Shown here piece by piece: positions 6,290-20,838 of a stretch of DNA of 64,000 nt. The stretch lies in assembly GCA_017864995.1 (NCBI GenBank), contig GCA_017864995.1_4097.1. The stretch is one strand, 5' to 3'. The notes under the pieces are model-generated. The model had not been told where the DNA came from, made no database searches, and saw only the letters and a list, made by a program, of their open reading frames with translations. Made by a program: the position numbers and the translations under genes. Position 1 is the stretch's first letter, and each line of letters opens with the position of its first letter. The stretch is from a phage.

Positions 6290-8230
6290 TAGACAGGGGA
6301 AGCTCCGCAGGGAAAGCATTGGACAGGCTTTAACATATGTTATATATGTTAAAATTCAGCCTGGACAAATGCGATCACTAGGATTCTCCCCAGGCTAAAC
6401 CCCGTAATCATATGTAGTCATAAGTAATCATATATAAACATTTATATGAGCACCGTAGAATCACAGAATGATTATATATGATTCAGTACTGATTATTATA
6501 GACAAGATTACTCAAGAATGCTAGGGAAGGATTCAGTACTGCCCCAAAAGTATTCAGTACTGAAGGTGTCGATATGCCACTAAGTAGGCAGAGGAAGTCT
6601 GCCGTACTTTGTAGTTTCCAAGCTCCTTTTCCAATTTGCAAATTACATCAAATGTAATCAAAAGTAATCACGCAATGATTAGTACTGAATTATTACTTTC
6701 ACCTTAATTACAATTACCCTTTTACCCTTCGGGGTAAAATTCAATTACCCCTTGAGGCTCCAGCAAAAAGTTGGTTAGTACTCCATCCTAAATCTCGATC
6801 CTAAAAATTTTGGAGTACCTATGAAATAAAAGTTGGATCTTCGAAAGTTGAAATTTACGTTGGGACGTTTATGATTTGTGGGATATAATGATGTTTGTAG
6901 TCGGGTAGTTCTCAAGAATATCAGTACTGAAAGATGAAAGAAAGTTATTGACTTTATGATTCAGTACTGTATAATGTTCTACATAGGGTGATGAGTTGCT
7001 GCGAACAATTCATTTACTCTACCTCCTGTCGTGAGACAGTACAGAAAAGATAGTTCCTCCTGTGGTGGTGGTACATCTTTTTGAACCTCATATGAAAATC
7101 GTAATAACAGTACTGATATTAACAGAATGGTGTCAGTACTGATTTTAATCTAAAGCATTATGCCACCAGCTTGTGCTGGTGGATTCCCTCTAACAGTATT
7201 CAGTACTACATGATGGTCTTCATCCTCCTAGGGTAACATAGTGAGGGCTATGATGGCAGTACTGAATACTCCCTTTCAAAAGATAGATCTATGGTATAGT
7301 ACTGACGGATTTTGGGTGTAGTTACCCTGGATGGATTTTGGACGTAGATATGTCTAGCCCTCCAGAAGTCTGGAAGTAAAGATGGCTATCCATCTAGACG
7401 GCTAAACGGCTAGATTTCTGGATGGCTGGATGGCTAGACGTTTGGACGGCTAAACGGCTAGATGGTTACACGTCTGGAAGTATAGACGGCTAAATCAAAA
7501 TTTTATTTTGTTTTTTCCAATAGTTCCCCTACCGCGTGGGGATAGTTTCCCCGCAGTATCTGGTGTTAGATTTTTCTGAATCTGGAATCATTATCTTATA
7601 AACTGGGGGCAATGTCAACGACCTGGACGGATATTTTTAAAAATTTTTTCAGTACTGAATTTTGGGCGTAACTATGCACCCGGTGGGCTTGAGTCTTTCT
7701 CGACTTGATGGAACTATTATACAGTACTGAAAAAATAAAGCAATACCCTGGAAGCAAAAAAGTTTTAATTAATTTGCTTGCTATCCTGGGCCGGACTATG
7801 GTACTATATTTCAGTACTGAGAAAGTGCGTTTACCTGCTAGGGTGCGGGAGTGTATCCTTTTTTTATATCTTGAATTTTGGGCGTAATTCCGCACCCTCT
7901 GGGGTTTCCGCTTTCTCGCGTCTATGTAGTAATTATACGCTTTTTCAGGATCAAGTCAATACCTAAAAACAAAATAATTGAAAATAATTTAACGCGTTTA
8001 AACTGCCCGTAACGCCCTGGAATGATTGGAATGGTGCAAATGTATAGCTTAGGTGTACTAATGCGTTAGAATGCGTCTGAGGCCGTTTTACGGGGTATAG
8101 GGATGATTTAGTGGATTGATTCAGTACTGAATAATAGTACTACTATATAGAAAGATAGTTCCCCTGGATGGTTGCAGTACTGAATGATAGTTTCCCTATA
8201 TAGAAAGAAAACTATTTTAAAAGTATTTGT
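6290..8230. other. ~2 kb non-coding hub with dense palindromes and repeats
   Basis: no RBS-supported ORF; many CAGTACTG palindromes; hairpins incl. TTTTACCC-ttcg-GGGTAAAA at 6720-6739; track ORFs here rejected. Confidence 0.5.
7360..7500. repeat. iteron-like direct repeats (GGCTA core)
   Basis: about 8 copies of r-GA-y-GGCTA-r incl. ACGGCTAAACGGCTAGAT x2 and GTCTGGAAGTA-A/T-AGA-y-GGCTA x2. Confidence 0.5.
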
Positions 8231-8239
8231 AGAAAGTAC

Positions 8240-8267
8240 TTGCACCGTACTGATAAAAGCGTATAAT
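8240..8267 (+). promoter_or_regulatory. class I promoter (TTGCAC-16-TATAAT, then GTTTTACATC)
   Basis: near-consensus hexamers; same cassette recurs upstream of many genes. Confidence 0.6.
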
Positions 8268-8281
8268 GTTTTACATCGAGA

Positions 8282-8298
8282 GCGGGAACTCTTCCCGC
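8282..8298 (+). promoter_or_regulatory. 5'-UTR hairpin GCGGGAA-ctc-TTCCCGC
   Basis: perfect 7-bp inverted repeat ~15 nt after -10; no U-run; RBS follows. Confidence 0.5.
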
Positions 8299-8322
8299 TA
8301 CACTTTAAGAGAGATTAAAACG

Positions 8323-8685
8323 ATGGCAACTCAAATCACCAAAATTATTGCTAACCTGGTTAACTTCCGCGACGAGATGAAAGATCTTCCGGCGGTAACG
8401 GTTAAAACTCACATTGACGCATACCGCGAACTGATTAAAATGCTGCCGCTTAAGCGTGAACAATACGCCGCTACCGTGATGCTTGATGCGATGATCCATA
8501 AGATGATCTCCCATGATTTAACGATGGTTTATCAGTACATGGGCGAAAATTTCGCGGTGTGTAGTACGCCAGTACCAGGGATGGCAACAACTGAGGAATT
8601 GCACGGTTTAAATTTAAAACAAGATGCATGGGATAATATGCCTCGTTTCCTGGTATGGGCTGACAGTGGCAAAATTTACAAATAA
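8323..8685 (+). CDS. hypothetical protein (120 aa)
   Basis: start MATQITK after RBS TAAGAGAG (track start 8266 lies in hairpin). Confidence 0.6.
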   Translation: MATQITKIIANLVNFRDEMKDLPAVTVKTHIDAYRELIKMLPLKREQYAATVMLDAMIHKMISHDLTMVYQYMGENFAVCSTPVPGMATTEELHGLNLKQDAWDNMPRFLVWADSGKIYK

Positions 8686-8699
8686 GTTTAATAAAGTAC

Positions 8700-8727
8700 T
8701 TGCAAACTATGTTTAAAAGCGTATAAT
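8700..8727 (+). promoter_or_regulatory. class I promoter (TTGCAA-16-TATAAT)
   Basis: followed by hairpin GGGGAA-tag-TTCCCC at 8742-8756. Confidence 0.6.
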
Positions 8728-8779
8728 GTTTTACATCAGGTGGGGAATAGTTCCCCACTATAATTAAGAGATTAATTGT

Positions 8780-9013
8780 ATGAGTACTATTTTAACTGTT
8801 TCTCAATCCGTTGCACTGACTGACCTATTAAACGCTTTAAGCCGTTGCACTGAGGTTGGCTTGTTTGATGCGGTTGACGTTGCACCGGACGTTATTAATC
8901 ATTTTTGTGATGCGATGGAAGAATGTAAGGAAGATGATAGCCGTATGATGGCGGTCGCCTTTGAGGAAGTACAGCCAGGTGAGATCAAAGGTTTACCAGT
9001 ACTGAAAAAATAG
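8780..9013 (+). CDS. hypothetical protein (77 aa)
   Basis: MSTILTVSQ; RBS AAGAG; Cys/acidic-rich. Confidence 0.6.
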   Translation: MSTILTVSQSVALTDLLNALSRCTEVGLFDAVDVAPDVINHFCDAMEECKEDDSRMMAVAFEEVQPGEIKGLPVLKK

Positions 9014-9016
9014 TAC

Positions 9017-9044
9017 TTGCAAACTATGTTTAAAGGCGTATAAT
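9017..9044 (+). promoter_or_regulatory. class I promoter (TTGCAA-16-TATAAT)
   Basis: followed by hairpin GGGGAA-tag-TTCCCC at 9059-9073. Confidence 0.6.
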
Positions 9045-9095
9045 GTTTTACATCAGGTGGGGAATAGTTCCCCACTATATAAGAGGATTAAAAAA

Positions 9096-9335
9096 ATGGC
9101 TAAATCAAAAATGTTCTTAGGTCACAAAAACAAAACTCATTGGAATGTAAGCCTTTGGATTAATAACGATGAGGGATTGTATCGGTTGGCCCTGGATTTT
9201 ATTAACGATAACACTAATCGCAATGATGCGGCCCGTCATATGATGTTATTTTTAGAACAGACTGGACAAGATAAAACACCGGACGGATTCAAATATAGCA
9301 CTACTGCGATCCGTGCGGCGATGGTTGGAATGTAA
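9096..9335 (+). CDS. hypothetical protein, paralog of 11133-11372
   Basis: MAKSKMFLGHKNKTHWNVSLWINN...TPDGFKYSTTAIRAAMVGM shared with 11133 gene. Confidence 0.6.
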   Translation: MAKSKMFLGHKNKTHWNVSLWINNDEGLYRLALDFINDNTNRNDAARHMMLFLEQTGQDKTPDGFKYSTTAIRAAMVGM

Positions 9336-9349
9336 TAGAATTTATTTAA

Positions 9350-9383
9350 AGTACTATCATTTTTTGCGATAGTACTTTATAAT
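9350..9383 (+). promoter_or_regulatory. class II promoter (AGTACT...AGTACT-tt-TATAAT)
   Basis: two AGTACT hexamers 21 bp apart, second abutting TATAAT; weak -35. Confidence 0.4.
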
Positions 9384-9420
9384 AGTGTTTTATTCATACA
9401 CCAACGATAAGGGCAACAGC

Positions 9421-9687
9421 ATGAATATTAAGTATTTTGCGACGCGTGAACAAGCTCGGATCGCCGCACGCCAGGACGGGGCAACGTTTAAAGATATGGG
9501 CGTACAATCGGAACGTGGTAAACGTTGGGCCATTGTAAAGCGTAGTACCGCCAGATCATTACAGTACTGGTTAGCGGCCTTAAAAAGTCCCGATAGTGTA
9601 TCGCGTCGAGTGGTAGAAATAAAGCTCGACCGAAAGGGCAACCGCGTGACCGTGTACCGTACTAAAAAGATTGCAGTACTTGAATAA
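9421..9687 (+). CDS. hypothetical protein, paralog of 21258-21653
   Basis: MNIKYFATREQARIAARQDGATFKDMG...RKGNRVTVYRTKK shared with 21258 gene. Confidence 0.6.
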   Translation: MNIKYFATREQARIAARQDGATFKDMGVQSERGKRWAIVKRSTARSLQYWLAALKSPDSVSRRVVEIKLDRKGNRVTVYRTKKIAVLE

Positions 9688-9694
9688 AAAGTAC

Positions 9695-9722
9695 TTGCAA
9701 ACTATGTTTAAAGGCGTATAAT
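9695..9722 (+). promoter_or_regulatory. class I promoter (TTGCAA-16-TATAAT)
   Basis: followed by hairpin GCGGGAA-ctc-TTCCCGC at 9737-9753. Confidence 0.6.
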
Positions 9723-9774
9723 GTTTTACATCGAGAGCGGGAACTCTTCCCGCCTATAACCTGGAGTAATAAAA

Positions 9775-10005
9775 ATGACTAATATGTATATGACTGAAGT
9801 TAAAACCGTAAAAGATACTACCACGAATAAAACTACTTACTTACAGCGGATCTGTGGTGTATGGCAACGTATCAGCAAATCAAAGTACTTTAAATTAACA
9901 TCATATGCAAATCGTTCGGATTCATTCAGTACTGAAATAAAAGGTAATAAAGTACACCAATACGGCACTTATTATTATTATAGCCTGGACGCGATTGCAG
10001 TATAA
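9775..10005 (+). CDS. hypothetical protein (76 aa)
   Basis: MTNMYMTEVK; RBS CTGGAG. Confidence 0.55.
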   Translation: MTNMYMTEVKTVKDTTTNKTTYLQRICGVWQRISKSKYFKLTSYANRSDSFSTEIKGNKVHQYGTYYYYSLDAIAV

Positions 10006-10252
10006 GCAGTTTACAAATCTTTACAATTGCCGGTATTGACTTATTTTGTCAGTACTGGCATAATGTATTCATTGGCAGATAAGCCGTAGCCCATAGGGTG
10101 CGGGAGTGTATCTATAGCAAAATTAGTTTAGTATAGTTACAATTGTGCACCCGGTGGGTTAGCTGTTGTCATGGGGTATATTATGCCAGTACTTGATAAT
10201 GCTGTCAATACTTTTTTACTATTCAGTACTGAAAACTATTTTTAAAAAGTAC

Positions 10253-10280
10253 TTGCAAACTATGTTTAAAGGCGTATAAT
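10253..10280 (+). promoter_or_regulatory. class I promoter (TTGCAA-16-TATAAT)
   Basis: drives conserved leader element 10291-10369. Confidence 0.5.
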
Positions 10281-10290
10281 GTTTTACATC

Positions 10291-10369
10291 AGGACGGGGA
10301 ACGAAATAAGTAACTTCCCGTTAAGTAGCCCAGGAGTAAGGCACACGAAAAACTCCCCTGATAAAATAG
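10291..10369 (+). ncRNA. candidate structured leader/sRNA element (copy 1)
   Basis: AGGACGGGGAACGAAATAAGTAAC..CCCGTTAAGTAG..CAGGAGTAAG..ACGAAAAACTCCCCTG; near-identical copy at 20066-20143. Confidence 0.3.
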
Positions 10370-10370
10370 T

Positions 10371-10398
10371 TTGACAATAGAAAGTAAAAGCGTATAAT
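10371..10398 (+). promoter_or_regulatory. promoter TTGACA-16-TATAAT
   Basis: second promoter immediately upstream of 10431 gene. Confidence 0.5.
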
Positions 10399-10430
10399 AC
10401 TTACATCAACTACTGAATGAGGGTTACAAA

Positions 10431-11042
10431 ATGAAAACTATCACTACTACTACTTTTGTTATGGCTTTTTCTGAACTGAACGCAGAACAAAAAACGGCGG
10501 CTATCGAACTGGTTCGGGATCGTGAGCGTTCATGTGAGGATAATTTCTTTGCTGAGGGCGTTATCGAGTACTATAAAGAAACAGTACTACCAGAATACGG
10601 CATAGATGAAGCTGAATTGCAATACAGTGGTTTTTGGTCGCAAGGTGACGGTGCATCAATCAGTACTGACCACGTTGACGCAGTGAAGTTTTTACGCAAG
10701 GTAAGAGCATTAACTAAGTATCGCTCAATCCGTCACTTGCTGAATGAAGATGATTTGGCGATGAGTGTAGAACGTTCACACTCTCGCTACGCACACGAAA
10801 ACACGGTAAGCGGGTACATTGAATCGGCTTACACTGATTTAACCGCAAAACAAGAAACGTTAGTTAATGAGCTTGAGGAACTACTCACTGATACTATTCG
10901 TGAATTGTCCCGCAAGTTGTACCGTGATTTAGAGAATGCATATGAGGATCAATTCACTACTGAAAACATTACGGCACTGATTGAGGGTAACGAATATCAA
11001 TTCAATGTTATTGATGGCGTAGTGGAATCAATCGAATATTAA
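10431..11042 (+). CDS. hypothetical acidic protein (203 aa)
   Basis: MKTITTTTFVMAF; largest gene in this block; function unknown. Confidence 0.6.
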   Translation: MKTITTTTFVMAFSELNAEQKTAAIELVRDRERSCEDNFFAEGVIEYYKETVLPEYGIDEAELQYSGFWSQGDGASISTDHVDAVKFLRKVRALTKYRSIRHLLNEDDLAMSVERSHSRYAHENTVSGYIESAYTDLTAKQETLVNELEELLTDTIRELSRKLYRDLENAYEDQFTTENITALIEGNEYQFNVIDGVVESIEY

Positions 11043-11054
11043 TTTAAAAAGTAC

Positions 11055-11082
11055 TTGCAAACTAAGTTTAAAAGCGTATAAT
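11055..11082 (+). promoter_or_regulatory. class I promoter (TTGCAA-16-TATAAT)
   Basis: followed by hairpin GGCGGGGA..TCCCCGC. Confidence 0.6.
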
Positions 11083-11132
11083 ACTTTACATCAAGGCGGG
11101 GAGTGGTTCCCCGCTCAAACGAGGATTTAAAA

Positions 11133-11372
11133 ATGGCTAGTACTAAAACTTACAACGGACACAAAAACAAAACTCATTGGAATGTAAGCCTTTGGATTAA
11201 TAACGGTGAGTCATTGTATCGGCTTGCTCAAAGTTGCATCGCACAAAGTAGAACTAAAGATATTGCTGCGGAATGTATGTACCGCAGATTAAAAGCCAAC
11301 GGTACTACTACAACGCCGGACGGCTTTAAGTATAGCACTACTGCGATCCGTGCTGCAATGGTTGGAATGTAA
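11133..11372 (+). CDS. hypothetical protein, paralog of 9096-9335
   Basis: MASTKTYNGHKNKTHWNVSLWINN...; start at RBS-supported internal Met. Confidence 0.6.
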   Translation: MASTKTYNGHKNKTHWNVSLWINNGESLYRLAQSCIAQSRTKDIAAECMYRRLKANGTTTTPDGFKYSTTAIRAAMVGM

Positions 11373-11392
11373 TATTCAGTACTGAGATAATG

Positions 11393-11415
11393 GCGGGTAA
11401 TAGTTCCCGCCTTTA
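11393..11415 (+). terminator. intergenic hairpin GGCGGG-N7-CCCGCC (weak terminator or processing site)
   Basis: same hairpin type as the 5'-UTR hairpins but no promoter; weak T-run. Confidence 0.3.
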
Positions 11416-11429
11416 CTGAGGGTTATCTA

Positions 11430-11690
11430 ATGAGTAAAGTAATTAGCTATACAGCACTAAGCAAGACATTATCTATTAGCCAGTGCACCGATGGTTATTG
11501 GCTATTTGATGAAACGCGTGGCATGAATTTAGCCATGCGTGCAAAAACTGCTGAGGCGGCGTATCTTGAAGCATTGGAATACTACCAGGAACGTTTAAAG
11601 GAAGTAGAAGAAGATTATAAAAGCCTCAAAGCGAAAGTAGATCATTTCGTCGGTCAATTCATCGAGGAAGACGACGACAAACAATATTGA
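11430..11690 (+). CDS. hypothetical protein (86 aa)
   Basis: MSKVISYTALSK; RBS GAGGG. Confidence 0.55.
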   Translation: MSKVISYTALSKTLSISQCTDGYWLFDETRGMNLAMRAKTAEAAYLEALEYYQERLKEVEEDYKSLKAKVDHFVGQFIEEDDDKQY

Positions 11691-11776
11691 AAAAGTACTT
11701 GCAATTAGTTTTCAGTACTGTATAATGGTTTACATCAAAGGGAGAAATGGTTCTCCCTGGTAATGAGGAAAATACA

Positions 11777-11998
11777 ATGGCTAATATCACTACTCTTTCC
11801 CAACTGGAAGCACTGGTTAAATCTATGCGGGAACATGCCGACAAAATCGGCGTACAAGATCCAGCCGTTTGCTTCTGCGACGAATTGAATGATGATACCC
11901 TGGTAATAGCAGAAGTCCAGGACGTTTCTAACTATTCCTCGCGTTACACTGGCGGCGTAGCAAATAAAGGCGACTTCTGTTTATACCTTACAAAATAA
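11777..11998 (+). CDS. hypothetical protein (73 aa)
   Basis: start MANITTLSQ after class I promoter plus hairpin GGGAGAA..TTCTCCC. Confidence 0.55.
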   Translation: MANITTLSQLEALVKSMREHADKIGVQDPAVCFCDELNDDTLVIAEVQDVSNYSSRYTGGVANKGDFCLYLTK

Positions 11999-12002
11999 CA
12001 AC

Positions 12003-12035
12003 GCGGGGAGATAATAACTCCCCGTTACTTTTTCA
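12003..12035 (+). terminator. rho-independent terminator
   Basis: GGGGAG-ataataa-CTCCCC followed by TTACTTTTT. Confidence 0.5.
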
Positions 12036-12240
12036 GTACTGAATCATTTAATAGACGGATCTCGGCACCCGGTGGGTTAGTGACTGTTTCGTCTTGATGT
12101 AGTAATTATGCCAGTACTGGATGCACTTGTCAACAACTATTTTTCAAATACTTTTTATTAAAATACTTGCAATTAGTTTTTAAACGCGTATAATGTTTTG
12201 CATAGGGGGAGCGGTTCCCCTGGTAACTAAGGATAATCAA

Positions 12241-12540
12241 ATGAAAATTACAATCATCGCCCTGGCTTTATCTGTTTCCTCTTTCGCTGTTAATGCGTCA
12301 TTAGATGTAAGTAGTGAAAAATTCATTCAGTGCACTGTTGCAATGACCGATGAAAGTACTGGCGAGATTGTATTAAAGGATCTGGAGATTCAGCCGGAAG
12401 CATTTAAAAACGGCCCGTTCCATGAAGAAGACGAAAACGGTAGCACGACAATTTATTATGATGCCAGTACTAAACGCGGTTCGGTCACTGTCATGGATAC
12501 TGAGAAAGTAACTCATACCGGCGTTATTAATTGCCGTTGA
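12241..12540 (+). CDS. small secreted/periplasmic protein (signal peptide)
   Basis: start MKITIIALALSVSSFAVNA-SLD, typical signal peptide; class I promoter plus hairpin upstream. Confidence 0.55.
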   Translation: MKITIIALALSVSSFAVNASLDVSSEKFIQCTVAMTDESTGEIVLKDLEIQPEAFKNGPFHEEDENGSTTIYYDASTKRGSVTVMDTEKVTHTGVINCR

Positions 12541-12561
12541 TAGATACTACGGGGTAACATC

Positions 12562-12792
12562 ATGACTAAGCGAATTGTTTTACTTAACGAAAGCAGTACT
12601 ACACAACTACTTAACGCCGTGCATTATGATATTGAAACGAGCGTTAATCTTATCAGTACTGTAGTACTGTTGGACACTGGAAAGGTCGCCAATGATAAAG
12701 CGATTGCAGGTATATTAACGGATCTTGAGCCTGGTCGCAGTGCACCAATAACGTTAAATTGTAAAGTGTTTAATATTTTACTCACTGATTAA
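12562..12792 (+). CDS. hypothetical protein (76 aa)
   Basis: MTKRIVLLNESS; followed by strong terminator. Confidence 0.5.
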   Translation: MTKRIVLLNESSTTQLLNAVHYDIETSVNLISTVVLLDTGKVANDKAIAGILTDLEPGRSAPITLNCKVFNILLTD

Positions 12793-12798
12793 GTACAT

Positions 12799-12826
12799 AG
12801 CCCACCTGGTGGGCTTTTTTGTTTTT
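12799..12826 (+). terminator. rho-independent terminator
   Basis: AGCCCACC-t-GGTGGGCT then TTTTTTGTTTTT. Confidence 0.7.
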
Positions 12827-12874
12827 GTAGTATCGTAGTACTGAGATACTTTGAAAATAGTTTTAAGAAAGTAG

Positions 12875-12902
12875 TTGACATTACCGCAGAAAAGCGTAGA
12901 AT
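12875..12902 (+). promoter_or_regulatory. promoter TTGACA-16-TAGAAT
   Basis: followed by ~110-nt leader related to the 10291/20066 elements. Confidence 0.45.
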
Positions 12903-13031
12903 GTATTACATCAAGACGGGGAGCACTAAGTAGACCGCCAGTAAGTCGAACGAAAAACTGGACACGTCGAGAAAACTTTGATACACTAATAAACGTAAAC
13001 GTAAACTTAACTTTAATTGAGGATTTATAAA

Positions 13032-13514
13032 ATGGCTAATGTAAAATCATTCATCAAAGCACTGGTAGCAAATGAAACTAACGTCGCGGCTGAGATCCTG
13101 GCTGAACTGGATAACGATACCATGAAAGCGGTACGCAATAATTTTAACATCGCGTACAGTACTGCGAAAGAACTACAAGCAAATAAAGCGGCAGAAATTG
13201 AAGCGGCAAAGGCGGCCCGTGAAGCAGAACTAAAAGCAACAATTGAAAGTATCCAGGCGGCAGTAGTTGGATTGGATCTGGAAGTAGTTACAGAGATGGC
13301 ACAAAAAGCCCTGGCGGTTAAGTATGGGGAAGACAAGCCAGAAGTAAAAGCCAAAAAATGGATTCAGGAACGCGTAGCGGTAGTACTGGACAACGGGGAA
13401 GAATATCTGATTCCGGTGCGTGGTAACTGCATTGCGGTAGTACTGGACGCGATTAACTCCAGTGGTATGACTCGCGAGGAATGGATCGAAGCTCATCGCA
13501 AAGTTGAAGCATAA
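13032..13514 (+). CDS. hypothetical Ala/Glu/Lys-rich coiled-coil-like protein
   Basis: MANVKSFIKAL...AAEIEAAKAAREAELKATIESIQAA; RBS GAGGA. Confidence 0.6.
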   Translation: MANVKSFIKALVANETNVAAEILAELDNDTMKAVRNNFNIAYSTAKELQANKAAEIEAAKAAREAELKATIESIQAAVVGLDLEVVTEMAQKALAVKYGEDKPEVKAKKWIQERVAVVLDNGEEYLIPVRGNCIAVVLDAINSSGMTREEWIEAHRKVEA

Positions 13515-13535
13515 CAATTAAAGTACTGAATCACT

Positions 13536-13566
13536 AGCCCACCTTAAACGGTGGGCTTTTTTGTGT
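13536..13566 (+). terminator. rho-independent terminator
   Basis: AGCCCACC-ttaaac-GGTGGGCT then TTTTTTGTGTTT. Confidence 0.7.
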
Positions 13567-13716
13567 TTATCGTTTACCAGGCCACCAGCACCGCCTAGAA
13601 ACGATTCTAACGCATTAAACTGATTATCTGATGCATTGCCCTAGCTGGTGGCGGTAAGGTCGTTGTAATGCGATTGAGAGCGTTTAAAGTATTTTGCAAA
13701 AAGTAATAAAAAGTAC

Positions 13717-13744
13717 TTGCACGATTAAGAGATTAGCGTATAAT
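13717..13744 (+). promoter_or_regulatory. class I promoter (TTGCAC-16-TATAAT)
   Basis: followed by hairpin GAGAGGGGGAA..TTCTCC. Confidence 0.55.
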
Positions 13745-13799
13745 GTTTTACATCGAGAGGGGGAAACGGTTCTCCTTCCAAATCAAAGGAATCAAAACA

Positions 13800-14027
13800 A
13801 TGGCTATTATCATTACTCGCGTATCTGGTACTACTGGCAACGAACAAGTAGTTGCAGTCATTACCATCAAGGAAGGTGCGGAATTGCAAAATGCAATGAA
13901 TACCTGGGCCGTTAATGAGTTCGGTCAGTGGGCAAGTGTAGCATACATTGAAACCTATCAAGTGCCGTCGATTAGTTTAACTGATTTGGGCGTTGAGCGT
14001 ATCCTTTGCCTTGATGAATTAAATTAA
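13800..14027 (+). CDS. hypothetical protein (75 aa)
   Basis: start MAIIITRVSG (track start 13743 lies in promoter/hairpin). Confidence 0.55.
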   Translation: MAIIITRVSGTTGNEQVVAVITIKEGAELQNAMNTWAVNEFGQWASVAYIETYQVPSISLTDLGVERILCLDELN

Positions 14028-14112
14028 AAAGTACTTGCAAAGTAAATCGAATAAAGTATAATACATTACATCAAGGGGAGAAAATGGTTCTCCCCACTAC
14101 AAGGAAACTAAA

Positions 14113-14256
14113 ATGAAAACTTGTCAATGTGGTCAGAAATCTATTACTGGTTTAAAGCGGGGCGTTGCACTTTGCCAGTACCATTATAATTTACAAGTAT
14201 GGGGTAAAGAATGGGCCGACCAGGTGGAAGCAGCAAAGAAAGCAAAAAGTAAGTAA
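14113..14256 (+). CDS. tiny Cys-containing protein (47 aa, below track cutoff)
   Basis: MKTCQCGQKS...LCQYHYN; own class I promoter plus hairpin upstream. Confidence 0.45.
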   Translation: MKTCQCGQKSITGLKRGVALCQYHYNLQVWGKEWADQVEAAKKAKSK

Positions 14257-14275
14257 AAATATTATCACAGTACTA

Positions 14276-14304
14276 TTGACATAGTTTGATAGTACTGGCA
14301 TAAT
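14276..14304 (+). promoter_or_regulatory. class II promoter (AGTACTaTTGACA-N9-gatAGTACTGg-CATAAT)
   Basis: TTGACA-17-CATAAT flanked by two AGTACT; near-identical copies at 17116 and 25293. Confidence 0.5.
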
Positions 14305-14345
14305 AGATTTTATCAAGACAACATATTAATTTAAGGAATACTAAA

Positions 14346-14669
14346 ATGGCTAAAACTATCATTAACACCGTTTCCCTGGCTGCAATCCGTGCAATCAATG
14401 TTGACGGTAAACGTTGGACTGATTCATATGGCAATACTTATCATTCTTGTCATGTAAGCGTCGAACTGGATAACGGTTTGAATGATCTGGCGGTTGAATC
14501 ATTTACTTATGGCTATGAAGATGCATATCAACAAACGGCGTTAGATCTATTAAAGGAATCAGTAGACGGGCTTAATACTGATGAAACCTCCCTTACTCGT
14601 TTGTGCAATGATCTTAATATCCCGTTGCATTGTACTGTACATAATGTTAAACGCAAAAAAGATCTTTAA
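14346..14669 (+). CDS. hypothetical protein, paralog of 20839-21162
   Basis: shared RWTDSYGNTYHSC..FTYGY..VKRKKD with 20839 gene. Confidence 0.6.
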   Translation: MAKTIINTVSLAAIRAINVDGKRWTDSYGNTYHSCHVSVELDNGLNDLAVESFTYGYEDAYQQTALDLLKESVDGLNTDETSLTRLCNDLNIPLHCTVHNVKRKKDL

Positions 14670-14749
14670 TTAGCTTTACTTTATGCAGATACTTTGATAT
14701 AGTGTCTGCATAGGGGAAAGAAATTAAATTAACTTAAGAGGAACGTATA

Positions 14750-15019
14750 ATGAAAAATATCAGTACTTTAATCGATGCAGGTACTCATGTTCGTCGGTCT
14801 ATGGTTGCAACCAGTACTACAAAACAAGTACCAAGCGGTTATCTTGTATTTGTGTACGATGGTAAACTCCTGGAACGTTCAATCAATTTTGATGTTAAAA
14901 ACAATTGCCGTTTTATTATCTTTAAGCGTGAACAATATAAAATTGATTTACCAGCAAAGCCCATAAGCGGGGCGTACAACGTGCAATCATTGTTTGAACG
15001 TCAACCATACACCTATTAA
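14750..15019 (+). CDS. hypothetical protein (89 aa)
   Basis: MKNISTLIDAG; RBS AAGAGGAA. Confidence 0.55.
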   Translation: MKNISTLIDAGTHVRRSMVATSTTKQVPSGYLVFVYDGKLLERSINFDVKNNCRFIIFKREQYKIDLPAKPISGAYNVQSLFERQPYTY

Positions 15020-15070
15020 TCAAAACATCGTTAGCGGTCGATTTAGGCCGCTTATATTGGGGATTATACC

Positions 15071-15343
15071 ATGAACGTTAATCAAGTACTGAATGAAGTT
15101 GAAAGCATCATTAAACCAATGAAACGCATTGATGCTATGTTAACACCGGAAGAATGCCGCCTTTATGAGCGTTACAGCGTCGAACAAGTCCAGGCGATGG
15201 CTATGGCTACCCCAGCCGTTAAACCGCCTGAGAATGCGTTACAGGACGTTACAGGGGATTATATCATCAATCCAGTACTAGGGAAGATGGCTGCAATCAC
15301 CGAAGATCAACAAGACTACTTAAGCCAGTACTTAAAAGGTTAA
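15071..15343 (+). CDS. hypothetical protein (90 aa)
   Basis: MNVNQVLNEVES; RBS GGGGA. Confidence 0.55.
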   Translation: MNVNQVLNEVESIIKPMKRIDAMLTPEECRLYERYSVEQVQAMAMATPAVKPPENALQDVTGDYIINPVLGKMAAITEDQQDYLSQYLKG

Positions 15344-15348
15344 TTAAT

Positions 15349-15558
15349 ATGCTTACTGTACAGGATAAGATCGACATCTTAAAGGTTAATATGTATGTGA
15401 TTGATGCAGTACCTGGTAAAGTATTTGCATACGATGACACCACTGTAAGCGATTTCTACTATAGCCAGGACGTGGGGGATCTTTCTGTACAGTCGGTTAT
15501 TGAAAACGTAGTTAATGCAGCGTATGAGCATTTACTTTCAAATAGTACTTGCAATTAG
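15349..15558 (+). CDS. hypothetical protein (69 aa)
   Basis: MLTVQDKIDILK; closely follows upstream gene. Confidence 0.5.
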   Translation: MLTVQDKIDILKVNMYVIDAVPGKVFAYDDTTVSDFYYSQDVGDLSVQSVIENVVNAAYEHLLSNSTCN

Positions 15559-15627
15559 TTTTTAAACGCGTATAATGTTTTACATGAAGGGGAGAAATGA
15601 TTCTCCCCACTAATTAAGGAATATGAA

Positions 15628-15774
15628 ATGAAAGCATCAAAAAAGAGTAATACTAAGAAAGCACGTTCACCTTTCGCTGGGGTATTCCCTTTACGTTTCG
15701 TTGATGAAGTAGTTTCCTACCCGCCGGGCCTTACTCCTGAGATGGTAGAAAGTTTGCGTAAATCTAAAAAATAG
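15628..15774 (+). CDS. small basic protein (48 aa, below track cutoff)
   Basis: MKASKKSNTKKARSPFAG...; class I promoter plus hairpin GGGGAGAA..TTCTCCCC upstream. Confidence 0.45.
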   Translation: MKASKKSNTKKARSPFAGVFPLRFVDEVVSYPPGLTPEMVESLRKSKK

Positions 15775-15855
15775 TACTTGCAATTAGTTTTTAGTACTGT
15801 ATAATGTTTTACATGAAGGGGAGAAATGATTCTCCCCAATAACAGGAGAATCAAA

Positions 15856-16008
15856 ATGAAACAATACAACGCTCGGTTTGATGTTACTATCGGTAACGGC
15901 AAAGGTCAATTCTCTTTCAGTACTCGCAAAAGTTATACAGAAAACTTCCTGCGTAATTGTGCACTGACCGCCGCACAAATTAAACATTATTTTCAGGCTA
16001 AAAAATGA
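15856..16008 (+). CDS. hypothetical protein (50 aa)
   Basis: start MKQYNARFD after RBS CAGGAGAA; class I promoter plus hairpin upstream. Confidence 0.5.
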   Translation: MKQYNARFDVTIGNGKGQFSFSTRKSYTENFLRNCALTAAQIKHYFQAKK

Positions 16009-16094
16009 AAACATTAGCTTACTATAGTTCGGCCCTGGTCGGTGCATTGATCGCGGCGTTGTTAGTAACCTATCTATTCTTTATGGTGATTTAA
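16005..16094 (+). CDS. candidate 29-aa single-pass membrane peptide
   Basis: MKTLAYYSSALVGALIAALLVTYLFFMVI; ATGA overlap with upstream stop. Confidence 0.35.
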   Translation: MKTLAYYSSALVGALIAALLVTYLFFMVI

Positions 16095-16238
16095 ATGAAT
16101 CCAACAGGTTTAAACTATAAAAGTTGTTCGGCATTTACGAAAGCAAATAAAGCGAATGCACGTAAAGCGAAAGTACAAGAATACATCAAGCAAGGCATGA
16201 CGCGAAAGGCGGCGATTCTAAAAGCTAAAAATAAATGA
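16095..16238 (+). CDS. small basic protein (47 aa)
   Basis: MNPTGLNYKSCSAFTKANKANARKAKVQEYIKQG; abuts upstream ORF. Confidence 0.4.
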   Translation: MNPTGLNYKSCSAFTKANKANARKAKVQEYIKQGMTRKAAILKAKNK

Positions 16239-16459
16239 AAAAAGTGGTTGACTCCGGTCAGCCATTTTGCTATTATATATTCATTGAGAGATAGCTCACT
16301 AGCCCACAGGGTGCATAAGTGTATCTATTATATAAGTATTGAGTACTGAAAACTATTTTAAAAGTATTTGTAGAAAGTACTTGCAAACTATCTCAATAAG
16401 CGTATAATGTTTTACATCGAAAGGGGAAACGGTTTCCCCTGGTAATAAGGAAACGAATC

Positions 16460-16801
16460 ATGACTATCTCAATTGCTCAATCTAACTTTGAAAATGAAAT
16501 CATCGCCCAGGCACTGCGTTTAAATGATGGTCGGGCCGAAATTAATTACGGTTTCAATTCAGGCGGTTGCGAAAACTATCAGTACTTTGTAACGGCTGAT
16601 GGCGGTGTCCTGGGTATCAATACAGTTATTGTAAACATCCAAAAAATTAATTTCAATGATCCAGACGATAGCCAGTTTTACATCACTGGCGTAGACGTGA
16701 ACTATGAGGATGACTCACTAACTGATGATTACACTGGCGAGCGGTTAGAAAGTGCATACGGTGAAGATGATTATCAGTCCGGTCCAGAAGATTTCGAATA
16801 A
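16460..16801 (+). CDS. hypothetical acidic protein (113 aa)
   Basis: MTISIAQSNF; Asp/Glu-rich C-term; class I promoter plus hairpin upstream. Confidence 0.6.
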   Translation: MTISIAQSNFENEIIAQALRLNDGRAEINYGFNSGGCENYQYFVTADGGVLGINTVIVNIQKINFNDPDDSQFYITGVDVNYEDDSLTDDYTGERLESAYGEDDYQSGPEDFE

Positions 16802-16897
16802 TATAAAAAAATAGTTTGACAATAGATTATAGTACTGTATAATAGTTTACATCAAGGGGAGAGATGATTCTCCCCACTAACAGAGAGAGAAAACAAA

Positions 16898-17110
16898 ATG
16901 GCTAATATCTGCACTGTACTGAAAAATGCAAAACAAGTTTTATTTTCTGATCACGATCATTTAAACAAGGATATTACTGGCGTTCGGAATATCAAAGATG
17001 TAAAAAGTGTTATGGGTATCTATTGCAATATGAAACGTGTTGGAACGTTCGGCGACAAAGTACTATACCAGGCAGGGGATTACAATTTTACACTGACTAT
17101 CATTAACTAA
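16898..17110 (+). CDS. hypothetical protein (70 aa)
   Basis: MANICTVLKNAK; promoter TTGACA-16-TATAAT plus hairpin upstream. Confidence 0.55.
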   Translation: MANICTVLKNAKQVLFSDHDHLNKDITGVRNIKDVKSVMGIYCNMKRVGTFGDKVLYQAGDYNFTLTIIN

Positions 17111-17193
17111 AAATATTATCACAGTACTATTGACATAGTTTGATAGTACTGACATAATAACTTTTATCAACTACACTACTAAGGAATTAAAAA

Positions 17194-17373
17194 ATGGCTA
17201 TCATCGCAAAAACTGAAATCGTTGGTCTGGATTCTATCATCATGACGTTTGAAGATCAAAAAGGTATGTATGTAGTTTCATATGGTGATTATGTTCGGGA
17301 GTATGAAACGGTAGACGAAGCCTTTGAAAGTTATATTCGCCAGGTGAATAAAGCATACGACGACTACCGCTAA
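17194..17373 (+). CDS. hypothetical protein (59 aa, below track cutoff)
   Basis: MAIIAKTEIVGLD; class II promoter upstream; RBS AAGGAA. Confidence 0.5.
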   Translation: MAIIAKTEIVGLDSIIMTFEDQKGMYVVSYGDYVREYETVDEAFESYIRQVNKAYDDYR

Positions 17374-17463
17374 AATATATTACCAGTACTATTGACAACG
17401 TTTGATAGTACTGTATAATAAGTTTTATAAACAGTAGTTAACTTAACCTAAGAGAGAAATAAA

Positions 17464-17607
17464 ATGATCGCACTGGATTCATTCATCGACGCAGTACTGG
17501 CAAAAACTGGCGAGGATCTGACCGCAGAACAATACGCGATGATCGAGCAATGTCAGCAAAACGGTAAATCGGTGAAAGATACTGTTAAGATTATCCGCAA
17601 GATGTAA
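17464..17607 (+). CDS. hypothetical protein (47 aa)
   Basis: MIALDSFIDAVLAK; class II promoter upstream; terminator downstream. Confidence 0.45.
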   Translation: MIALDSFIDAVLAKTGEDLTAEQYAMIEQCQQNGKSVKDTVKIIRKM

Positions 17608-17613
17608 TATTAT

Positions 17614-17643
17614 AGCCCACTGGTTAACGCTGGTGGGCTTTAA
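17614..17643 (+). terminator. terminator-like hairpin
   Basis: AGCCCAC-N12-GTGGGCT then TTTAATC; stem contains GCTGGTGG. Confidence 0.45.
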
Positions 17644-17706
17644 TCATTTACCCTATACAATGCCAGTACTCAACCGTTTATCTCGTTAGAATGCGTTACA
17701 GGACGT

Positions 17707-17919
17707 TTGACAATGATTAGCATGAAATCAGTACAAAAACAAATAGAAACATTATCAAAAATTAAACGTAAACAGTACTCGTTAGAATATACAATCAATG
17801 GTAACTATCATCTAATGAAAGAGAATAATTTCATTGTCATTGATGAATCATTGCAAGTTATTAGTATAGTACTGAAAGCATTAATCAATGACAGAAAAAA
17901 AATTAAAATAATCTATTGA
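17707..17919 (+). CDS. hypothetical protein (70 aa)
   Basis: ORF only; weak RBS and no clear promoter. Confidence 0.3.
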   Translation: MTMISMKSVQKQIETLSKIKRKQYSLEYTINGNYHLMKENNFIVIDESLQVISIVLKALINDRKKIKIIY

Positions 17920-18240
17920 CAATATCCTCCAGTACTGGCATAATACTTACATCAAGACGAGAACGTCACTAACCCATAGGGTGCACAAATGTAACTATAT
18001 AATATCGATCAATAAATGATCAAAAAAGTACTGGATCAATTTAGCATAAGGCGTATAATTCTGATCAATTCTTGATCAAAGGCAATATACGCAGTTGAAT
18101 TTATATAGACAGTACAAAGGCGTTACTATCCGTGGTAATGCTGGTGGATATGTAGTATCATGTGGTTTGAATAAGATTAGCACTAGTAGTATTATTGTAG
18201 CATTACAGTACTATAGTATTTTTATAATGAGGTTAAAATA

Positions 18241-18498
18241 ATGGCAGTAGGATACGCGAAAGACGGGGCCGAACAAGACGAGATTAACGCAGTGATTCAG
18301 GCAGCCGTTAACCACGCTAGAAAGCAAATTAACGCACAAAGAGAATCACTGGTACATTGCCTCGACTGCGGCGATAAAATCCCTGAGAATCGACGCCAGG
18401 CCGTTATAGGGTGCATGTATTGTATTACTTGCCAGGAGGATCATGATAGTACTTTTAAAAGAGATCCGCGTAATTGTTGGCATAGATCTATGAGATAA
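18241..18498 (+). CDS. TraR/DksA-family C4 zinc-finger protein
   Basis: RKQINAQ...CLDCGDKIPENRRQAVIGCMYCITCQ matches the TraR-type C-x2-C-G-x2-IPE-x-RR...C-x2-CQ pattern. Confidence 0.7.
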   Translation: MAVGYAKDGAEQDEINAVIQAAVNHARKQINAQRESLVHCLDCGDKIPENRRQAVIGCMYCITCQEDHDSTFKRDPRNCWHRSMR

Positions 18499-18505
18499 AA
18501 AGTAA

Positions 18506-18533
18506 TTGACAGTACTGAAAGATAGTGTATAAT
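18506..18533 (+). promoter_or_regulatory. promoter TTGACA-16-TATAAT
   Basis: AGTACTG in spacer; upstream of GNAT-like gene. Confidence 0.5.
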
Positions 18534-18562
18534 GTTTTATATCTTAACTGAGGATAGTAATC

Positions 18563-18919
18563 ATGGGAATACAACATATCACGCGTACTACTGACAATGG
18601 CGAGATCACTGGTTATCAGGTACAGGGCAAAGTAGCACAATTGCAGTACTGGTTTGTTAAACGTGGAATCATTGCACCGGATCTTGATTATGACCGTGTA
18701 GCGTTTATTGATTCTCTTTATGTTGATCCTGATAGTCGGGGCAATGGTGAAGGTAACGAATTAATGAATGCCTTTATTGATGCCGCCGATGATTCAGATT
18801 GTATCATCTTAGAATGCGATACGGGAGAAGATAACGCCTTTAATCTTAAAGAATGGTACGAAGGTTTCGGATTCGAGGTATTGATAGATAGTGAATATCC
18901 TATCATGATTTTATCATAG
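18563..18919 (+). CDS. putative GNAT-like acetyltransferase (small)
   Basis: LYVDPDSRGNGEGNELMNAFIDAA resembles GNAT motif A (R-x-x-G-x-G/A); weak call. Confidence 0.35.
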   Translation: MGIQHITRTTDNGEITGYQVQGKVAQLQYWFVKRGIIAPDLDYDRVAFIDSLYVDPDSRGNGEGNELMNAFIDAADDSDCIILECDTGEDNAFNLKEWYEGFGFEVLIDSEYPIMILS

Positions 18920-18996
18920 TACTTGCATTTAGTTTTCAGTACTGTTATAGTACTTGCATCAAGGGGAAATATCTTCCCCTACTAAGAGGAAATAAA

Positions 18997-19185
18997 ATGG
19001 AAAACTTATCAAGTATTTTAGTACAAGATGATTTCGGTAATCCTGGAAGTGCTATCATTGTTCGGGGCAATAAAGCAACGTTTGTTATTGCTGGTGGACC
19101 CGTACAGCGTAGCATTAAAAATAATGCTGTTACCATTAATAATGTACGCTATCGCTTAGATAAAGAATTAATTCATAAACTGTAA
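18997..19185 (+). CDS. hypothetical protein (62 aa)
   Basis: MENLSSILVQDD; promoter plus hairpin GGGGAAAT..TTCCCC upstream. Confidence 0.55.
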   Translation: MENLSSILVQDDFGNPGSAIIVRGNKATFVIAGGPVQRSIKNNAVTINNVRYRLDKELIHKL

Positions 19186-19270
19186 AAAAGTACTGGACAA
19201 TAGATTATAGTACTGTATAATAGTTTACATGAAGGGGAGAAATGATTCTCCCCACTAAGAGGAAAGAAAA

Positions 19271-19483
19271 ATGCAAGGTCAACTAATCGTTCGTAAATGG
19301 TCTGATACTAACGAAAAACCGTGGGATGTACAATACATCGCCCCCAATGGTGAATCCAGATATCAACCAGGTGTAACGCATAGTACTGAGCAATTCGCCG
19401 CCGCTCATCGCGAACGTCTGTTACAATCAATGCAGCAAGGTTCCGGTGAAAAATTCATTCAGGATCATTGGCTGAAAGATTAA
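19271..19483 (+). CDS. hypothetical protein (70 aa)
   Basis: MQGQLIVRKW; promoter plus hairpin upstream. Confidence 0.55.
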   Translation: MQGQLIVRKWSDTNEKPWDVQYIAPNGESRYQPGVTHSTEQFAAAHRERLLQSMQQGSGEKFIQDHWLKD

Positions 19484-19569
19484 AAAGTACTTGCACAGTA
19501 CTGAATAAAGTGTATAATGTTTTATATCGGAAGGGGAATAGTTCCCCTCCGAACAAAGAGGAAAGTATA

Positions 19570-20480: not shown

Positions 20481-20567
20481 GTATTGACAAAGTATCTTAG
20501 TACTGTATAATAGTTTACATCGAGAGGGGGGAATGGTTCCCCTCCTAACTAAAAGAGAGAAATAAAA

Positions 20568-20750: not shown

Positions 20751-20838
20751 GTATTGACAAAGTATCTTAGTACTGTATAATAGTTTACATCAAGTGAGGG
20801 GAAACGGTTCCCCTCCTAACAAAGAGAGAGAAATAAAA

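Follow-up and report, generated by a model that had tools for sequence, protein, structure and literature searches.

Cyanobacterial genomes carry a highly iterated palindrome, HIP1 (GCGATCGC). Phages normally purge short palindromes from their DNA, escaping restriction enzymes. We analysed 64,000 nucleotides of phage DNA (GenBank assembly GCA_017864995.1, contig GCA_017864995.1_4097.1; this whole stretch is called the window below), in which a first-pass annotation had flagged an extreme density of the palindrome AGTACT at positions 6290-8260. The closest known kind is the cyanobacterial iterated palindrome. The likeness is that of a short perfect palindrome that is at least 10-fold over-represented genome-wide, occurs in all reading frames and between genes, shapes codon choice and is common to related genomes, while its reader and function are unsettled. 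AGTACT differs from HIP1 in being a hexamer of a virus family and not of cells, and in that its sites also gather at a chromosome end that has been mapped and take fixed places in promoters. This tie to a mapped genome end and to promoter architecture in a virus family is new. AGTACT, a palindrome excess and the ACT-free island described below are not mentioned in the papers on phages CBB, RaK2, EJP2, fEgEco12 and Sharanji or in full-text searches.

Other known systems share parts of the pattern. In Escherichia coli the Dam target GATC is likewise a short palindrome that lies in the -10 and -35 regions of promoters and is also spread evenly over the genome, and phage ECO103, a close relative of the window phage, carries a Dam-family enzyme of its own; GATC, however, is not ten-fold enriched genome-wide. 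At the pac site of phage P1 a cluster of short palindromes also marks a cis-acting site, seven TGATC(A/G) hexamers flanking the cut, but the phage studied here has fixed 21-kb terminal repeats and not headful cuts. The host-takeover module of SPO1 and the pre-early genes of T5 resemble the long terminal repeat described here, full of small early genes with strong host-type promoters. SPO1 also makes TF1, an abundant DNA-binding protein that prefers phage DNA and represses early promoters at preferred sites; there, phage and host DNA are told apart by hydroxymethyluracil and not by an iterated sequence.

We propose, with a probability of roughly 45%, that AGTACT (consensus TTCAGTACTGAA) is a duplex-DNA recognition site for a putative phage-encoded protein of two-fold symmetry, selected chromosome-wide in Rak2-like jumbo phages. 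Compared with cyanobacterial HIP1, the phage system offers additional experimental handles. A mapped end falls within the densest cluster, fixed sites occur in dozens of promoters, some blocks are natural motif-less 'knock-outs', and in one block AGTACA takes the place of AGTACT.

AGTACT in the window and in related phages

The window DNA is about 95% identical to Escherichia phages ECO103 4-12-1 (here ECO103) and BF17 and 88-94% identical to PBECO4 and 121Q. Judged by this close identity, the phage is an Asteriusvirus (PBECO4/121Q-like), one of the 'Rak2-like' jumbo myoviruses, and a coliphage. The complete ECO103 record (351,992 bp, assembled from pieces) served as the genome-wide reference. 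Expectations for the window were derived from dinucleotide-preserving shuffles, Markov models of orders 1-4 and synonymous-codon shuffles within genes.

We found 281 copies of AGTACT in the window, where 18.9 +/- 4.4 were expected from dinucleotide-preserving shuffles (shuffle maximum 31), making it the most frequent hexamer by a wide margin. The Markov expectation rose from 19.0 at order 1 to 49.8 at order 2 and 118 at order 3, and under each of these models AGTACT ranked first among 4096 hexamers. An order-4 model, with 237 expected, absorbed most of the excess in the window because it is built from pentamers that are already enriched; over the whole ECO103 genome the same order still left 919 copies against 750 expected (z = 6.2, rank 3). 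Those 919 copies in 352 kb correspond to an observed/expected ratio of 9.1. Synonymous-codon shuffles of the open reading frames (ORFs) of the window gave 56 +/- 6 copies against 199 observed, and those of the whole genome 225 +/- 11 against 786. Furthermore, Ser-Thr pairs are spelled AGTACT in 52.6% of cases, compared with 15.5% expected, and the dipeptides Ser-Thr and Val-Leu are themselves in excess. These data show that AGTACT is written into genes at the cost of codon choice and even of amino-acid choice. The first-pass annotation had named codon and dinucleotide bias as the explanation that could undo its claim. Bias was ruled out as the cause by the shuffles, the synonymous shuffles and the Markov tests, including the first rank at orders 1-3 and the genome-wide excess at order 4.

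The same annotation had described the motif as frequent across the window, inside coding regions and at gene 3' ends. Coding DNA of the window does carry 3.7 sites per kb, with all three frames in use (65/46/77), and the density in non-coding DNA is higher still. The 281 sites extend over the window with the exception of two spans, 27265-32781 and 34848-43648, that contain none. Frequency at gene 3' ends is a property of the early region only, where a peak 0-40 nt past stop codons is the promoter of the next gene; elsewhere the profile around stops is flat.

Strong enrichment is limited to the complete hexamer. Its observed/expected ratio was 14.8 in RaK2 and 8.8 in GAP32, CBB and XaC1 combined, next to the 9.1 of ECO103, while one-mismatch variants reached 1.3-4.4 when the change fell at outer positions and about 0.4-2.2 at inner positions. 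In ECO103 by itself these two ranges were 1.3-2.2 and 0.6-2.1. The flanking bases also have preferences, with C at -1 and G at +1, a T-rich -3/-4 and an A-rich +3/+4. Left flanks and complemented right flanks mirror each other (r = 0.925), and both strands are therefore read alike. AGTACT positions were kept between the window and ECO103 in 86.0% of cases, compared with 61.2% for all hexamers, with the same trend within each region.

The enrichment recurs in every lineage of the family sampled, at about 9-15-fold (six lineages enriched). Klebsiella phage RaK2 has 114 sites against 10.8 expected in 50 kb, Cronobacter phage GAP32 53 against 6.1, Pectobacterium phage CBB, of another genus, 57 against 6.5, and XaC1, recorded on a Xanthomonas host, 65 against 7.5; in 1.8 kb of Klebsiella phage fENko-Kae01 there are 19 against 0.77. 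The more distant Pseudomonas phage PA5oct (MK797984, 100001-125000) has a single site where 7.8 are expected, a scarcity opposite to the family trait and possibly an avoidance. A 50-kb sample of E. coli K-12 contains three sites, so that the phage DNA is about 40 times denser in AGTACT. AGTACT enrichment thus tracks the phage family and not the host, and the motif can serve as a simple diagnostic of the family.

Taken with the synonymous shuffles, the use of all frames, the conservation of positions and the even spacing described below, the six enriched lineages strongly support the conclusion that AGTACT is kept by selection, beyond chance or codon bias, in agreement with the functional site first suggested for it. 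A by-product of biased mutation or repair, for example of the very-short-patch type coupled to a methyltransferase that has been put forward for certain iterated palindromes, would need no function of the sites. Such a drive would place sites everywhere irrespective of gene class, as seen, in a genome in which methyltransferases are present, and a freshly amplified paralogue array (27396-32781, described below) lacks the motif as un-ameliorated DNA would. It does not fit with site positions conserved above background, spacing more regular than random or one-mismatch precursors that are not depleted. Precise promoter and terminus positions also recur across genera whose flanking DNA differs, and the ACT-free island keeps the motif as AGTACA (40 against 15 +/- 3 in synonymous shuffles), which is unexpected for a drive towards AGTACT. 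We consider this explanation very unlikely.

The excess of AGTACT stands beside a shortage of other palindromes. GCGC has zero copies in the 352-kb ECO103 genome, about 25 GC-containing 6-bp palindromes, among them GGATCC, CTGCAG, CCATGG, GGTACC and CGTACG, are missing from the window altogether, and GATC has an observed/expected ratio of 0.59 in ECO103. The absent palindromes are a sign of strong restriction-site avoidance beside the AGTACT excess. AGTACT is itself a Type II restriction site, cut by ScaI and by an E. coli isoschizomer. The Rak2-like family purges many palindromes yet retains one of them at about 900 copies, for which its protein sequences pay. This raises a testable question: which reader does an iterated palindrome serve, and what makes selection favour its density?

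One answer would be a methylation mark, a modification target having been among the functions first offered for the motif. An orphan methyltransferase of the phage would modify AGTACT, and the mark would gate packaging cleavage, time promoters and protect the DNA from AGTACT-specific restriction. Two such enzymes are encoded by ECO103, one a Dam-family N6-adenine methyltransferase (PF05869, E = 6e-32) and the other of the C5-cytosine type (PF00145, E = 7.5e-38), and methyltransferases have been reported in Sharanji and RaK2. The tolerance of some 900 AGTACT sites where many 6-bp palindromes and all GCGC are purged suggests protection. The three layers of the pattern (a cluster at a cis-acting site, hexamers in promoters and an even spread) mirror E. 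coli GATC together with P1 pac, and a high, even density would be selected since a mark must be within reach everywhere. PF05869 enzymes are usually GATC-specific or non-specific; with GATC under-represented, GATC need not be the target of the Dam-family enzyme. However, the specificity of the enzyme is not readable from its sequence, and its family occurs in 1798 phage records, so its presence says little. For the same reason, co-occurrence of the Dam-family enzyme with the trait was set aside as uninformative. If the mark were 5-methylcytosine, a deamination shadow would be expected, but AGTATT and AATACT stand at 1.4 and 1.0 observed/expected, and C-to-T changes are not over-represented where relatives have lost an AGTACT site. 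Moreover, the symmetric preference over 12 bp is wider than typical methyltransferase recognition, and a mark alone would still need a reader to explain the selected density. On balance methylation is the main alternative to a protein-binding site, though an unlikely one. The Mom-like modification enzyme of RaK2 was rejected as a common reader, having no homologue in ECO103 or the window.

Outside the early region, coding DNA (2.15 sites per kb) is nearly as rich in AGTACT as non-coding DNA (2.40 per kb), the profile stays flat around starts of genes as well as stops, and the sites are spaced more evenly than by random placement. The coefficient of variation of the gaps is 0.872 against 0.997 +/- 0.041, and the longest gap is 2103 bp against 3151 +/- 552. 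Two further explanations draw on this regularity. In the first, AGTACT would be an orientation-free self-marker, similar to Chi, that halts or switches a processive helicase-nuclease or translocase of phage or host origin, so that host DNA, poor in sites, is degraded and phage DNA is spared or recombined. Chi and the DNA uptake sequences are likewise over-represented, evenly spread short motifs marking 'own' DNA. The roughly 40-fold contrast with the host sample, the even spacing with few long gaps, the inheritance of the trait with the phage family and the RecB-like exonuclease, UvsX, UvsW and Dda genes annotated in RaK2 would all suit such a marker. Yet known Chi sites are asymmetric and depend on orientation, and uptake sequences too are asymmetric, read in one orientation and a possession of cells, whereas AGTACT is a perfect palindrome with symmetric flanks. 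The fixed promoter positions and the terminus cluster are left unaccounted for, and no cognate enzyme was identified. We judge a self-marker of this kind improbable.

The second explanation is that AGTACT is a preferred start for a T4-type, gp61-like primase, which would make the pentamer primer pppGUACU and start on both strands. In T4 the primase recognises G(C/T)T together with a cryptic T, and the primers that it makes are pentamers. AGTACT would supply five templating bases plus the cryptic 3' T, and the palindrome would give a start on both strands. The even spacing and avoidance of long gaps are consistent with this, as are the enrichment across the sampled lineages with its absence from PA5oct and the gp61- and gp41-like genes annotated in RaK2 and XaC1. 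One strand of the ACT-free island would be unprimable, but we found no rationale for a ban on priming from one strand over 8.5 kb. In ECO103, CGTACT, GGTACT and TGTACT reach 1.5-2.2 observed/expected compared with 9.1 for the palindrome; a GTACT core as a primase-like unit was rejected, only the full palindrome being strongly enriched. Priming also gives no reason for a palindrome, for fixed sites at -35 and -10 or for a cluster around the repeat boundary, and we give it little credence.

The genome end and the early promoters

The linear genomes of Asteriusvirus have a direct repeat of about 21 kb at their ends, as determined for fEgEco12 by PhageTerm and ten restriction digests, ScaI not among them (PMC13070987). 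The terminal repeats of Sharanji were likewise established by PhageTerm (Sharanji paper). Alignment places base 1 of fEgEco12 at window position 6583, which matches the physical left end of the virion DNA and the first base of the repeat (gccacta/AGTAGGCAGAGG..., the slash marking the end). The flagged stretch, 6290-8260, is therefore the terminal control region. This non-coding region (6281-8322) runs from the last small ORF of the right-hand unique DNA to the first gene of the repeat, and its alignment to the non-coding DNA near the end of fEgEco12 shows 96-98% identity. Equivalent regions, also non-coding, are present in CBB and fENko-Kae01. In the window phage the region holds 19 AGTACT sites, where 0.7 would be expected in 6290-8260.

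The first-pass count of at least 12 hexamers within 6480-7320, most of them in a longer form, was accurate: there are exactly 12, and 8 of the 12 read CAGTACTG. Three CAGTACTG sites lie just outside the end (6485..6561, at 6485, 6535 and 6556), the last two 21 bp apart, and the DNA ends 21 nt past the AGTACT at 6556. Nine sites lie inside, in the first 720 bp (6681..7303, at 6681, 6777, 6923, 6963, 7109, 7135, 7202, 7258 and 7298), so that within 840 bp the mapped end is flanked on both sides. The 840 bp of the ECO103 genome that are densest in AGTACT, with 12 sites, begin 98 bp before the physical end. The full 12-bp palindrome TTCAGTACTGAA, also reported at first, stands at 6553, 7648 and 8120 in the flagged span and has 9 copies in the whole window.

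The arrangement recurs in two other lineages. In CBB a 1.9-kb non-coding region carries 4 sites in the last 120 bp or less before the boundary and 10 sites 220-600 bp after it, followed by 8-bp units in an array homologous to one in the window. Ahead of the annotated repeat boundary (2001 of the analysed piece), the final two sites are at 1957 and 1978. In fENko-Kae01, whose repeats were mapped by PhageTerm, sites at 500, 557 and 580 precede the boundary at 601, and a run of more sites follows. Thus, in three lineages with mapped ends, the last two sites are 21-23 bp apart and the end comes 15-21 nt later. A packaging recognition site had been among the functions offered for the motif, and a cluster that straddles the mapped end in three lineages lends this option specific support, suggesting that the flagged cluster may take part in packaging. 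Such clusters can help to locate packaging or terminal signals in jumbo phages that are candidates for therapy and whose ends are mostly unmapped. CBB and fENko-Kae01 share CCCCTTCCGCT/ATATC exactly at the annotated start of the repeat (CBB ~1985-2005, fENko-Kae01 ~586-605). The Asteriusvirus boundary (window 6575-6590) differs and reads gccacta/AGTAGGCAG.

Behind this end lies the direct terminal repeat itself (6583..27395, 20.8 kb, delimited by alignment to fEgEco12 bases 1 and 20,993), with about 50 small early genes and 6-7 AGTACT per kb. The early genes share a cassette of a strong sigma-70-type promoter, a TACATC motif, a GC stem-loop, a ribosome-binding site and ATG. AGTACT is carried by 25 of the 34 sigma-70-like promoters of the repeat, at preferred offsets from the first base of the -10 element: -7/-8 (n=16), -27 (n=10), -29 to -31 (n=4) and -17 (n=3). 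Sites of the -7/-8 class abut the -10 element, those of the -27 class overlap the first base of a TTGCAA -35 element, and some promoters have both, 20-24 bp apart. A third class of promoter, TTGACT-17-TATTAT, is without AGTACT, and a promoter just past the repeat boundary (TTGACT-16-TATTAT), upstream of a block of paralogues, resembles it. The -35 and -10 placements are classical operator positions. Together with the symmetric flanks (r = 0.925) they fit a dimeric DNA-binding protein, another of the functions first offered for the motif, and such a protein may be what reads it. In the operator test, the sites were not confined to regulatory DNA, as the coding and non-coding densities outside the early region indicate.

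Two further explanations were considered. In the first, AGUACU would act in RNA, for instance as an endoribonuclease site that times messenger RNA decay, as RegB and GGAG do in T4. The density is highest in early transcription units, and the neighbouring island is purged of ACU on the messenger strand, both as such a signal would have it. However, a signal in RNA would explain neither the palindrome nor the mirror symmetry of its flanks, many sites lie upstream of -35 elements or in promoter spacers, and the density is equal across gene classes. This makes an RNA signal highly improbable.

In the second, the reader would be a protein of the host, notably the nucleoid-occlusion factor SlmA. Its published site (GTGAGTACTCAC) contains AGTACT as the core of a 12-bp palindrome read by a dimeric helix-turn-helix protein (PMC3020112), and most hosts of the family are enterobacteria. 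In each half-site SlmA requires G at position 1, T at 2, A at 4 and G at 5 (PMC3020112), and these flanks are absent: 0 of the 281 window sites match GTRAGTACTYAC even at one mismatch, and the least frequent bases beside the sites are G at -1 and C at +1. Nor does the trait follow SlmA-bearing hosts, being present in the Xanthomonas-recorded XaC1. The flank requirement, the lack of matches and the XaC1 enrichment led us to rule out SlmA as the reader, and binding of a host protein in general has a next to negligible probability.

The palindrome, its symmetric 12-bp context, its conservation throughout the family and its independence of the host point to a phage-encoded, two-fold-symmetric protein that binds duplex DNA, the reading that we favour. 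In our model, dimers of this protein would occupy the site clusters that flank the repeat boundary and would thereby mark the concatemer junction for terminase, by likeness to the clustered hexamers of the P1 pac site. Once accumulated, the same protein would occupy the promoter sites and turn early transcription off, as TF1 does in SPO1, and through the evenly spread sites it would preferentially label or coat the DNA of the phage over that of the host.

Several observations weigh against this reading. We found no reader protein: nearly all window proteins are without a known domain, and no DNA-binding domain was found among those scanned (30 against Pfam, 20 against PHROGs). Over 260 kb the sites are as dense in coding as in non-coding DNA, which is true of no classical operator or pac site; the primary function may therefore be another, with the uses at the terminus and in promoters secondary. 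At the end itself, the boundary CCCCTTCCGCT/ATATC of CBB and fENko-Kae01 is absent from the boundary of this phage; the cleavage determinant itself may therefore not be AGTACT. The distance of about 20 nt from site to end is unremarkable given the local density, so that the evidence is the location of the cluster, and the right repeat boundary at 27395 has no comparable cluster, its nearest AGTACT being 136 nt off. A methyltransferase target would give much of the same pattern in a phage that encodes two orphan methyltransferases, and a block of 5.4 kb does entirely without AGTACT.

Blocks without AGTACT and the ACT-free island

This AGTACT-free block (27396..32781, plus strand) directly follows the repeat, and its promoter is also without the motif. 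It is part of a tandem array of 23 paralogous ORFs of 65-94 amino acids (27493-33446, plus strand), the first 20 of which lack AGTACT while the last three have sites. GTAC occurs in the block at chance frequency, and the same holds for the equivalent block of 121Q, which likewise has no AGTACT. Most simply, the array would be of recent amplification or homogenisation and would still have to acquire the motif; it is also possible that the block is exempt from the function of the motif.

A second block lacks AGTACT in another way. The ACT-free island (34846..43313, plus strand, about 18 ORFs) has zero AGTACT and a single ACT on its coding strand, compared with 122.6 +/- 9.4 expected when its proteins were re-encoded with the codon usage of the window. 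By frame (0/1/2), ACT occurs 1, 0 and 0 times against 40, 41 and 34 expected, and its reverse complement AGT is abundant and not depleted on the coding strand. In the place of AGTACT the island has AGTACA at 5.4 per kb with the same flanking bases, the excess over synonymous shuffles being that given above. This shows that the pressure to keep an AGTAC motif persists even where ACT is forbidden. Homologous blocks in ECO103 and 121Q have zero ACT over 8213 and 7511 bp, with proteins that are about 40% identical. The island is the only such anomaly in the genome, and no equivalent was found at 225-275 kb of RaK2.

Evasion of a nuclease with specificity for ACU in RNA, or for ACT in single-stranded DNA, would leave the pattern seen in the island. 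The toxins known from E. coli have ACA, GCU or, in the case of ChpB, ACG/ACA/ACU as their targets, and none cuts at ACU only (PMC12151602). ACA and ACG are not depleted in the island, and these toxins do not fit. Transcripts without ACA or GCU that escape MazF or MqsR are similar, in that one trinucleotide is absent in all frames while the reverse complement is normal. The scale of the island (8.5 kb, about 18 genes, a complete purge) is far beyond these known examples. To our knowledge it is the most extreme strand-specific trinucleotide purge described in a phage. Other origins were rejected. A by-product of recent duplication does not agree with genes that are mostly unrelated or with a property that survives about 40% protein identity between strains. 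By reasoning, avoidance of a CRISPR protospacer-adjacent motif does not suit a purge of one strand only, and a codon- or transfer RNA-level cause does not suit a purge of all three frames. The 27396-32781 block might have been a mirror of the island that avoids AGT, with a replication origin between the two, but AGT is at expectation there after re-encoding (z = 0.4).

The island points to an unrecognised sequence-specific nuclease in the conflict between phage and host. More tentatively, the two anomalies may belong together, AGTACT being a self-signature of the phage read by a dedicated protein, and the ACU-less island revealing an endoribonuclease specific for ACU, or a corresponding single-strand nuclease, that is active during infection. 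If so, the signature would tell the phage chromosome from that of the host for end recognition and packaging, early shut-off and protection. It would be a viral counterpart of Chi and uptake sequences and a sequence-based alternative to base modification, and the island genes alone would be expressible while the ACU-specific enzyme is active. We regard this joint reading as doubtful.

One paralogue family lies on both sides of the island (33436-34130 and 43187-44312), with further members at 49871-50230 and 52110-52472. These flanking paralogues give the impression that the island entered a paralogue array by insertion, or was exchanged inside one. A tandem duplication of 356 bp covers 33435-34130. 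Milder regional differences between ACT and AGT are small, partly frame-specific and compatible with differences in codon usage. In ECO103 the coding-strand skew of ACT minus AGT is positive in the last 30 kb and the terminal repeat and negative from about 25 to about 95 kb; its sign changes without a change in gene orientation, and outside the island it is weak and partly frame-specific.

Further features of the window

Within the terminal control region, a small GC hairpin (GGCAGAGGAAGTCTGCC, 6587..6603, plus strand), recovered in a scan for terminator-like structures, starts 4 nt inside the end. A sigma-70-like promoter (TTGACT-16-TATAAT, 6948..6975, plus strand) has the AGTACT at 6963 in its spacer, abutting the -10 element. 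About 750 bp inside the end come some 20 head-to-tail units of 8 bp (ggatggct / agacggct / aaacggct, 7332..7492). CBB, although of a different genus, has a homologous array in the same relative place (2690-2810 of the analysed piece). Where the window phage and CBB carry this array, the two Klebsiella phages RaK2 and fENko-Kae01 have Fur-box-like repeats (gagaatgataatgattctcatt) that fill their terminal non-coding regions (in the analysed pieces, RaK2 590-720, 885-912 and 1113-1135; fENko-Kae01 1290-1395 and 1640-1660). Further inside, the minus strand of 7590..7959 has two sigma-70-like promoters, at 7959-7932 and 7618-7590, and a possible ORF of 99 amino acids (7596-7895). In fEgEco12 the annotation of the right-hand repeat copy lists this ORF as g614. 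The motif count adds seven further AGTACT sites (7651..8240, at 7651, 7723, 7813, 8123, 8136, 8176 and 8235). The last of them belongs to the first early promoter of the repeat (8235..8267, plus strand), in which AGTACT lies over the -35 element (AGTACTTGCAC), followed by a 16-nt spacer and TATAAT; downstream are the TACATC motif and the GC stem-loop leader.

Early-gene cassettes extend over 8235-27300 (for example 8722-8790 and 16838-16906). Their stem-loop has a G-rich and a C-rich arm and the loop AAT(A/G)GTT, and in 20 aligned copies 4 of the 6 stem pairs keep pairing through changes on both sides. Small early genes at about 9000-9300 and 11070-11375 are 77-90% identical in nucleotide sequence to unrelated large coliphages (rV5-like, phi92-like and Phapecoctavirus), and the same genes also match records labelled Campylobacter phage. 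These matches suggest that early genes have recently been exchanged between phage families.

A search against Rfam at gathering thresholds gave no match in the window, and a transfer RNA scan of it gave none. Pfam and PHROGs yielded no functional lead for 20 proteins in or adjoining the ACT-free island or for 10 other window proteins. Domain hints in the window are limited to an RCC1-repeat protein (36-1202, minus strand) and one weak, sub-threshold match of the ORF at 22516-23157 to a protein kinase domain. In 1287-6280, unique DNA just before the repeat, GTT occurs 25 times against 90 expected, and AGTT is absent from 2385-6613. The same 1287-6280 stretch holds arrays of ORFs of about 60 amino acids that fall into at least three paralogue families.

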